A stretch of DNA of 64,000 nt from a virus. Taxonomy: Duplodnaviria > Caudoviricetes. Shown one piece after another: positions 57,792 through 59,238 of this stretch. Position 1 is the first letter of the stretch. Every line of letters begins with the position of its first letter. The stretch spans positions 7,453 through 71,452 of the IMG/VR virus record IMGVR_UViG_3300011923_000008; one strand, given 5' to 3'. The notes beneath the pieces are model-generated. The model ran no database searches. It saw only the letters and a program-made list of their open reading frames with translations, and was not told the DNA's origin. The position numbers were made by a program, and so were the translations under genes.

Positions 57792-58046
57792 CTATAAGCC
57801 CAGCGGCACCCGAGTACCGTCCTTGGCGACCAGCGCGTTGGTATCGCCAGGCACCAGTTTCACACCCAACAGCGTCTGCACCGCCTCAGTCGATGCCGGG
57901 CTACCCAGCCCTTTGCGCACGATCTTGCGCGTCTCAATGAAGTCTTTCAGGGACGCGGCATCAAGCTCGATGCACTGAGGGTAGGCGTTGTCATGTTGGG
58001 ACCAGTGCGCGCGGATGGCACTGACCATGGTGTCGTAAAGCGTCAT
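57792..58046 (-). CDS. Small moron protein opposite to the early operon
   Basis: 84-aa protein-like ORF between two hairpins. Confidence 0.7.
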   Translation of the reverse strand: MTLYDTMVSAIRAHWSQHDNAYPQCIELDAASLKDFIETRKIVRKGLGSPASTEAVQTLLGVKLVPGDTNALVAKDGTRVPLGL

Positions 58047-58127
58047 AGCGACAAGTCTACCGCCCCCAGTGGGCCCCTATTCACAGCCCGCCCTGAGCAA
58101 TCGAGGCGGGCTCTTCTCATTCACCTC

Positions 58128-59192
58128 ATGGCTGCCTACTACAACGAAATAGAGCCGTATGCAGCCCAATGGCTGCGCAATCTCATCGCTGCGGGCCACA
58201 TTGCACCCGGTGATGTTGACGAAAGGAGCATTGAAGATGTTCACCCCGACGAACTCAGGACCTACACCCAATGCCACTTCTTCGCCGGCGTTGGTGTTTG
58301 GTCCTACGCCCTGCGCGCCGCAGGATGGCCAGATGACCGATCTGTTTGGACTGGTTCCTGTCCGTGCCAACCTTTCTCCGAGGCAGGCCAAGGAGCTGGG
58401 TTTGCTGACGAGCGGCACCTGTGGCCTCACTTCCACTGGCTCATACAAGAGTGTCGCCCTCCAGCAATCTTTGGTGAGCAGGTTGCGAGCAAGCCTGCAG
58501 GACCTTGGATCGACCTTGTATCCTCAGACTTGGAAGCCATGGACTACGCCGTCGGAGCGTGCGCTTTCCCGTCTTCGGGCGTCGGCGCGCCGCACATCAG
58601 AGACCGCTTGTACTGGCTGGCCAACTCCAGCAGCGCAGGAGTTCGAGCCAAAGGACTTGGAGCGCCTGCAGGAGAGGCGCCAAGAGCTGCAGAGGAAGTA
58701 CCGGAACAACGGGTTTGGACTGACGCTGGGCCAGGCGGCGCCACTGATGTCGGGCTGGCCCACACCAAACAGCACGATTGTGGACGCCAAGCCCAACCCT
58801 CCAATCACACGGGGCCGCACACTGACAGATCCACAAATCAGCACAGCGGATATAGCAGTGCACCTTTGCGGCTGGCCGACGCCGAGCTGCAACAACGACA
58901 GAACGGGCAATCCCGAGTCGGCCTTGTCAATGACCAGAGCGGACGGGAGCAAGGTGCAGCAGCGACTACAGGACTTCGCAGCGATATGTCTCCCGGCCCG
59001 GTTAACGGCCTCTGGCGATCTGCTGATTGGCTGCTCTGCCGGGATGGAAAGTGGCGGCCAGTTGAACCCGGCACATTCCCGCTGGCTCATGGGGCTGCCG
59101 CCCGAGTGGGACGCCTGCGCGCCTACGGAAATGCCATCAATGCGCAAGCCGCGCAAACCTTCATCGAAGCAGCAATGAGCTGCATCCCATAG
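58128..59192 (+). CDS. C5-cytosine DNA methyltransferase, alpha chain (motif IX not seen)
   Basis: Motif I HFFAGVG, IV GSCPCQPFS, VI GEQV, VIII PHIRDRLYW, X RLRAYGNAI; region between VIII and X is low complexity. Confidence 0.92.
   Translation: MAAYYNEIEPYAAQWLRNLIAAGHIAPGDVDERSIEDVHPDELRTYTQCHFFAGVGVWSYALRAAGWPDDRSVWTGSCPCQPFSEAGQGAGFADERHLWPHFHWLIQECRPPAIFGEQVASKPAGPWIDLVSSDLEAMDYAVGACAFPSSGVGAPHIRDRLYWLANSSSAGVRAKGLGAPAGEAPRAAEEVPEQRVWTDAGPGGATDVGLAHTKQHDCGRQAQPSNHTGPHTDRSTNQHSGYSSAPLRLADAELQQRQNGQSRVGLVNDQSGREQGAAATTGLRSDMSPGPVNGLWRSADWLLCRDGKWRPVEPGTFPLAHGAAARVGRLRAYGNAINAQAAQTFIEAAMSCIP
58333..59178 (+). CDS. Overprinted +1-frame ORF, putative methyltransferase beta chain (three GWPTP units and motif IX-like segment)
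   Basis: AGGA SD before MTDLFG; GWPTP x3; GGQLNPAHSRWLMGLPPEW. Confidence 0.8.
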   Translation: MTDLFGLVPVRANLSPRQAKELGLLTSGTCGLTSTGSYKSVALQQSLVSRLRASLQDLGSTLYPQTWKPWTTPSERALSRLRASARRTSETACTGWPTPAAQEFEPKDLERLQERRQELQRKYRNNGFGLTLGQAAPLMSGWPTPNSTIVDAKPNPPITRGRTLTDPQISTADIAVHLCGWPTPSCNNDRTGNPESALSMTRADGSKVQQRLQDFAAICLPARLTASGDLLIGCSAGMESGGQLNPAHSRWLMGLPPEWDACAPTEMPSMRKPRKPSSKQQ

Positions 59193-59238
59193 ATTCCTAG
59201 CCCGCCCTGAGCGGGCATTTCCATTTCTGGAGCCCAAC

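Follow-up and report, generated by a model that had tools for sequence, protein, structure and literature searches.

What supplies target recognition to a phage gene that carries the catalytic motifs of a cytosine-5 (C5) DNA methyltransferase and nothing conserved where the target-recognition domain (TRD) belongs? The question is raised by the gene at 58128-59192 on the plus strand of a 64,000-nucleotide (nt) stretch of DNA, referred to as the window, which comes from an IMG/VR provirus 71,452 bases long. An initial annotation had proposed that two chains are made from two frames of this gene, as in the enzyme M.EcoHK31I, and comparative evidence together with a model of the complex supports this. 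The locus very probably consists of two same-strand genes, alpha in frame 0 and beta nested in its +1 frame, which would jointly make one two-chain C5 DNA methyltransferase of the M.EcoHK31I type, an orphan. This reading is well supported by the comparison of related loci.

The two reading frames

For comparative analysis, 80 related loci (alpha 50-63% identical) were fetched from viral contigs and combined with several phage records, giving 85 loci. Openness of the frames was tested in 74 non-identical loci, over a span from alpha nt 205 to less than 100 nt from the alpha stop. Selection was mapped in 71 non-identical loci with both frames intact, using alignments guided by alpha and by beta. 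Synonymous-codon identity is the chance that two sequences sharing a residue also share its codon. The features on which the argument rests are as follows.

58128-59192, plus strand: alpha gene, 354 amino acids, predicted catalytic chain of a C5 methyltransferase (PF00145, phrog_363, structural model, homologues aligning from residue 1)
58237-59178, plus strand: beta gene, +1 frame, 313 amino acids, wholly nested in alpha (P0001 of the gene callers, phrog_1008, phrog_31772, openness)
58224-58228, plus strand: AGGAG, Shine-Dalgarno-like, 8 nt 5' of the beta ATG at 58237 (read from the sequence; start-site survey of relatives)
58128-58362, plus strand: alpha-only constraint zone, with the motif I region of alpha and a free N-terminal tail of beta (mean alpha synonymous identity 0.49)
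58365-58620, plus strand: doubly constrained zone 1, in which motifs IV, VI and VIII of alpha lie over the conserved N-terminal part of beta (alpha synonymous identity 0.77)
58615-58980, plus strand: beta-only constraint zone with three GWPTP-led modules, alpha being an unconserved but open linker (beta synonymous identity 0.43)
58983-59160, plus strand: doubly constrained zone 2, the C-terminal part of beta with LNPAHSRWLMGLPPEW over the pre-X segment and motif X of alpha (alpha synonymous identity 0.79)

Frame 0 is open from 57993, or from the alpha ATG at 58128, to 59192. The motifs listed for it in the initial annotation were all read directly from the sequence: I (FFAGVGVWS, 58278-58304), IV (SCPCQPFS, 58356-58379), VI (FGEQV, 58470-58484), VIII (APHIRDR, 58587-58607) and, at the C-terminal end, X (YGNAI, 59124-59138, residues 333-337). 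Across 68 sequences, Y333, G334, N335 and A336 of motif X are invariant and I337 is nearly so (at least 90%). The phrog_363 match spans alpha end to end (1e-86), the PF00145 match is restricted to residues 73-173 (7e-12), and the TIGR00675 score lies under its cutoff. The alpha model is confident at residues 1-173 and 335-354, including the C-terminal helix, and a Foldseek search with it placed M.HhaI on top (E 7e-7). Motifs I, IV, VI and VIII together with motif X identify alpha as a C5 cytosine DNA methyltransferase.

A TRD and motif IX, which belong between motifs VIII and X of the same chain, were missing from frame 0 according to the initial annotation, and alpha indeed has neither. The Pfam match ends at residue 173, and the roughly 120 residues between the two motifs (174-296) have a pairwise amino-acid identity of 0.14-0.31 and a predicted local distance difference test (pLDDT) value of ~30. 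By inspection, the conserved pre-X segment of alpha, RPVEPGTFPLAHG, could be a degenerate form of motif IX.

The +1 frame is open from ~58153/58159 to 59178 in the window, and it is conserved. A beta-like tblastn match sits in the +1 frame of alpha in 85/85 loci (E 1e-24 to 1e-66). The frame is open across the tested span in 69/74 loci, as against 6.5% of synonymous-codon shuffles of alpha, and the +2 frame, with about 12 stops per gene, is open across it in 0/74.

Both frames are under purifying selection. Relative to the upstream, alpha-only zone, alpha synonymous identity rises in both doubly constrained zones (Mann-Whitney p = 8e-13 for zone 1 and 4e-12 for zone 2, values that overstate the evidence because related loci were counted as if they were independent trials, the pattern being unambiguous nevertheless). 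The freeze of alpha synonymous sites sets in at about 58365, and beta amino-acid identity in zone 1 is 0.68. Synonymous sites of beta are free only at 58623-58980, compared with a beta value of 0.77 in zone 2, and this free stretch coincides with the unconserved, model-disordered stretch of alpha. Over the beta-only zone the alpha frame is stop-free in 48/48 loci (P=0.17 in beta-synonymous shuffles); the linker is kept open though unconserved, and therefore the tether to motif X is itself under selection. The tolerance that the initial annotation had ascribed to the host frame over the repeat units thus holds for the alpha sequence, which is unconstrained there, but not for stop codons.

Beta covers ~88% of alpha and overprints its motifs IV, VI and VIII. 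With ~940 nt nested, of which ~430 nt are doubly constrained, this is among the longest well-supported same-strand overlaps of phage genes, and the motifs that it runs across are the catalytic ones of a textbook enzyme family.

Public data hold beta in large numbers. The chain is identical to P0001, a protein of 313 amino acids predicted by public gene callers, and matches phrog_1008 (1.8e-34) and phrog_31772 (3e-32), both labelled DNA methyltransferase. More than 7,700 beta-like proteins are predicted, none with a Pfam family, and beta lies beneath an annotated 'DNA cytosine methyltransferase' in 216 phage and 29 plasmid records. It also occurs at lower guanine-cytosine (GC) content, as a +1 open reading frame (ORF) of 236 codons in Rani, a Paenibacillus phage with 47% GC (E = 4.5e-17 with the beta profile), and of 223 codons in E. 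coli phage Bas78 (50% GC; E = 1.4e-32).

In a few relatives one frame is broken. The break is an interruption of alpha in Pseudomonas phage PACT201 (L002), in PMG1 (L003) and in L049 and a truncation of beta in L026 and in L070; L003, L026 and L070 were excluded from the selection-map alignments. Decay of the copy, errors of sequencing or yet another way to split the enzyme may lie behind such loci.

Start, modules and motif-IX-like box of beta

The probable start of beta is the ATG at 58237, which gives 58237-59178 and 313 amino acids; an alternative in-frame ATG at 58333, preceded by AGGA, would give 281. The initial annotation had credited the +1 frame with its own Shine-Dalgarno site, and the AGGAG before the ATG at 58237 agrees with this. 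A start near 58600, by the first GWPTP, and a chain of only ~190 amino acids do not hold, beta being ~313 amino acids long and conserved from ~58365. An in-frame start lies 5' of the conserved part of beta in 72/72 loci (ATG in 71/72), and in 65/72 an ATG stands there behind a Shine-Dalgarno-like site (GGAG, GAGG, AGGA or stronger). The alpha codon for Asp37, which creates the ATG at -90 codons from the beta string GSTLY, is GAT in 62/71 loci, compared with 41% GAT gene-wide. The codon for Arg33 is AGG, which forms the AGGAG, in 25% of loci compared with 7% gene-wide.

Programmed +1 (or -2) ribosomal frameshifting, by which the alpha N-terminus would be fused to beta, is an unlikely route to the second chain. 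It would agree with a +1 frame that is open from 58153, just 25 nt past the alpha start, and with a beta start that differs in position between lineages. The start-site evidence favours separate initiation, because ATGs with a Shine-Dalgarno-like site are kept in most loci and the GAT and AGG codons that make them are enriched. No conserved slippery site was seen, and the beta chain of M.EcoHK31I needs its own start codons (PMC2836561).

The conserved N-terminal part of beta reads LS.RQAKELGL.TSGT ... LGSTLY.LTWK.W.TPS ... RLRAS..RTS and includes a degenerate WxTP unit, WKPWTTPS, a fourth unit upstream of three clean ones. The three GWPTP-led units and the DNA repeat of the initial annotation were found as described, with the second unit at 58753: the window contains the word GGCTGGCCNACNCC in exactly three copies (58615, 58753 and 58870; 0.05 expected), each of which encodes GWPTP in the +1 frame (58615-58629, 58753-58767 and 58870-58884). 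The modules have a G/S-W-(P)-T-P leader and are 29-46 amino acids long.

Repeat number, which the initial annotation had suggested comparing across homologues, ranges from one to five modules per beta, in different orders and on divergent backbones. The comparison rests on pairwise identities, single-linkage clusters (notably cluster 0) chaining unrelated units. Internal modules from one locus are never more than 45% identical to each other and so did not arise by recent tandem duplication. Module similarity, compared across loci, follows backbone similarity poorly (r = 0.24), and there are 25 pairs in which modules at least 85% identical sit on alpha backbones no more than 75% identical. There are 56 module architectures in 71 loci, with units recurring in different orders, so that beta carries tandem dissimilar modules varying in number and order among relatives. 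Relative to locus L006, for example, the window has one extra module (58615-58752); the two betas are 83% identical over their shared part, which does not start until the second module. In every locus the last module is conserved, as is the segment following it.

Further downstream lies the box LNPAHSRWLMGLPPEW (59062-59109), which contains the LNP..SRWLMGLP string pointed out in the initial annotation; its pattern LNP..WLMGLP..W is nearly invariant. The single-chain enzyme of Mycobacterium phage Fancypants carries xPTPxAxD units and a box, FPEWMMGWPAGW, in frame between motifs VIII and X. By this comparison the LNP..WLMGLP box of beta is a reasonable candidate for motif IX.

Two compact nested pairs were also seen, in Paracoccus phage KLEP18-1 (L092:1462-2283, alpha 273 amino acids) and in Bas78 (L093:1498-2295, alpha 265 amino acids). 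The KLEP18-1 beta has no clear GWPTP module and the Bas78 beta has one; the N-terminal part and the IX-like box of beta therefore appear to be the core, and the modules accessory.

In Fancypants gp73 (L090:1309-2535) and Gordonia phage Baddon gp4 (L091:1309-2379), frame 0 encodes both the IX-like box and motif X, and the +1 frame has an ORF spanning motifs IV-VIII, 192 codons long in the former and 250 in the latter. Strings in these ORFs (MS.TSG ... SWK ... PTP) recall the N-terminal part of beta by eye only, and the hidden Markov model of beta gave no significant match to the +1 frames of the two genes. Baddon has its PTP-type units in the +1 frame and IX and X in frame 0, an arrangement suggestive of another way of partitioning the enzyme.

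The two-chain reading and its alternatives

On the two-chain reading, alpha would be the catalytic large domain, with motif I binding S-adenosylmethionine, the PCQ cysteine in motif IV, and motifs VI and VIII, and its flexible tether would carry motif X at the far end. Beta, a +1-frame chain initiated separately from an internal ATG that has a ribosome-binding site of its own, would provide what alpha is without between VIII and X. Its conserved N-terminal part would clamp onto alpha, its variable array of GWPTP-led modules would be the presumed DNA-recognition region, and its motif-IX-like box would pack on the N-terminal helix, motif VIII and the motif-X helix of alpha. The heterodimer would methylate phage or prophage DNA and, as an orphan enzyme, would probably shield the phage genome from host restriction.

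Modelling of the two chains together, a step put forward in the initial annotation, supports binding between alpha and beta. The score, ipSAE (interaction prediction score from aligned errors), was 0.91, compared with 0.00 for the best control; this mark was reached by 58/80 solved complexes and by 2/110 mismatched pairs, a calibration that is only rough, the alignments being self-made. Runs agree in at least 53% of contacts, with a partner pLDDT of at least 62. In the model, the IX-like box of beta contacts alpha at its N-terminal helix, around motif VIII and at the C-terminal segment that bears motif X, and the N-terminal part of beta contacts alpha residues 120-166. The predicted interface has its core in doubly constrained zone 2. 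A model of this kind shows likeness, not binding. To the extent that it is correct, the contacts join stretches of alpha and beta that share most of their coding DNA (58485-58626 and ~59050-59134).

Several points weigh against the reading of beta as the second subunit. Beta matched no family among the Pfam and NCBIfam models, and a profile search of PDB sequences found no relative. The model of the beta monomer is poor (pLDDT 62.5). When beta was aligned with the Fancypants enzyme by hhalign, its box was set on the box preceding motif X only weakly (E = 0.02, probability 2%). The start of beta varies by lineage (-96, -90, -86, -67 or -58 codons from GSTLY), and the relatedness of the loci, as said above, inflates the statistics. 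The complex score may partly be a memory of intrachain packing, because single-chain C5 methyltransferases, in which motif IX lies on the same surfaces, have been solved. Finally, the translation of beta, the heterodimer, the role of beta in recognition and the biological role, including the need for either chain, are what we infer. Other searches with beta were uninformative: Foldseek with the monomer model returned noise only, the ESM Atlas feature search gave nothing usable, and hhalign of beta against alpha detected no internal paralogy.

Some of these points would also suit a beta that is real and translated but no methyltransferase subunit, acting as a regulator or inhibitor of alpha or in an unrelated phage function; such a protein could well be without family annotation or recognisable fold, and the assignment of motif IX is weak. 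We regard this as improbable. Alpha has no conserved or folded sequence at the place of the TRD, the beta box aligns with an IX-like box that precedes motif X, in frame, in a relative with a single chain, the complex model puts it on the surfaces expected for motif IX, and M.EcoHK31I provides a precedent. Least credible of all is that the +1 frame is no gene, being a chance ORF in GC-rich DNA (the methyltransferase gene has 61% GC, and long spurious ORFs are common at such composition) or a single-chain gene broken by frameshift errors: against this stand the match in all 85 loci, the openness test, the synonymous-site pattern of both frames, a +2 frame full of stops, and the presence of the layout at 47-50% GC and in more than 70 loci.

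The primary study of M.EcoHK31I is reportedly that of Lee, Kam & Shaw in 1995. The enzyme, from E. coli HK31, recognises YGGCCR and consists of an alpha chain with motifs I-VIII plus X, together with a beta chain that has motif IX, encoded in another frame inside alpha (PMC2836561, PMC3404938). Methylation was kept until all usable beta starts had been removed by changes silent in alpha, and activity came back when beta was supplied separately (PMC2836561). Compared by description only, the present locus is like it in having two polypeptides, with beta wholly inside alpha in another frame and with its own start.

The likeness drawn in the initial annotation stands for the nested second chain and fails for the division of labour. 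M.EcoHK31I has its TRD in alpha and only motif IX in beta (PMC2836561, PMC3404938), whereas here the sole conserved sequence for the place between VIII and X, and with it the whole variable region, lies in the beta frame. Unlike the beta of modest size in M.EcoHK31I, the present one (~313 amino acids) overprints alpha motifs IV-VIII, and its recognition region would be a variable array of 1-5 GWPTP modules, the VIII-X stretch of alpha being an unconserved tether. M.EcoHK31I belongs to a restriction-modification pair; here no restriction gene was recognised nearby. The locus differs from the M.EcoHK31I description in having the whole variable region in beta, a larger beta over catalytic motifs, a module array and no restriction partner.

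M.AquI is likewise a C5 methyltransferase naturally split into two chains within the variable region (PMC3404938). One of its chains holds motifs I-VIII and half of that region and the other holds the other half with IX-X, and the two are not described as nested in overlapping frames (PMC3404938). Motif X is on the small chain in M.AquI and on alpha here.

Tandem dissimilar modules are known elsewhere. The multispecific C5 methyltransferases of the Bacillus phages SPR, phi3T and rho11s reportedly carry such modules between motifs VIII and IX, varying in number and order; these enzymes are said to be single polypeptides in which each TRD confers one specificity. The locus resembles them in its tandem array of short dissimilar modules and departs from them in placing the modules in beta and the catalytic motifs in alpha.

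The GWPTP modules may be independent recognition units or parts of one DNA-binding domain. We propose tentatively, and with considerably less confidence than the two-chain reading itself, that they are independent target-recognising units, three of which would make the enzyme multispecific, freely added, dropped or exchanged, and that the N-terminal part of beta arose by overprinting the best-conserved catalytic motifs of alpha and binds the alpha segment encoded by the same DNA. If so, a recognition array laid over a stop-free tether would allow free exchange of specificities, with ~480 nt on either side kept locked by double coding. In any case the variable array is a natural system for studying module exchange where the other frame need only stay open. 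M.EcoHK31I has been put to use for targeted methylation (PMC2836561), and if the modules are separable, the present pair would be a ready-made heterodimeric scaffold for that purpose.

The nested two-frame layout has been shown experimentally only for M.EcoHK31I, yet it is common in phages and mostly half-annotated. PGAP (Prokaryotic Genome Annotation Pipeline) and most phage records annotate alpha alone. Both ORFs, of the same family and with the same nesting, are annotated in K1H (ORF29/ORF28, 'C-specific methylase'/'Mte8-like protein'), K1ind2, Xanthomonas phage PhiXhv-18 and Paenibacillus phage Rani (gp50/gp51, 'g50 Internal gene'). Literature searches on nesting in this phage family returned only M.EcoHK31I with such a layout; 'Mte8' appeared in them as a gene label only, and no paper was found that analyses the K1H, K1ind2, PhiXhv-18 or Rani pairs. 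In phages and prophages, 'DNA cytosine methyltransferase' genes annotated with half the enzyme only appear to number in the thousands, which touches the prediction of specificity, REBASE-style cataloguing and attempts at expression.

Genomic context

The methyltransferase gene lies on the plus strand in an early/recombination region, with a YqaJ-like recombinase and a DnaQ-like exonuclease upstream; it is flanked by genes whose products have no known function, and at the end of the window there is an integrase. No restriction endonuclease was recognised among the neighbours, some of which are of unknown function, and the enzyme is therefore best called an orphan. Orphan enzymes are usually taken to protect phage DNA against restriction by the host, and the orphan state and early-region context would fit such a role here.

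An 84-codon ORF on the minus strand (57792-58046), with no family match, separates the methyltransferase cassette from the early genes on the plus strand. The gene is also flanked by a direct repeat.

58079-58098, plus strand: 20-nt direct repeat, upstream copy; the second copy (59193-59212) is overlapped by a terminator-like hairpin (59200-59216)

The two copies are identical at 18/20 positions, the first lying 30 nt 5' of the alpha ATG and the second directly after the alpha stop. Each copy supplies the 5' arm for a hairpin rich in GC. The repeat could delimit a cassette of the moron type that was inserted here.

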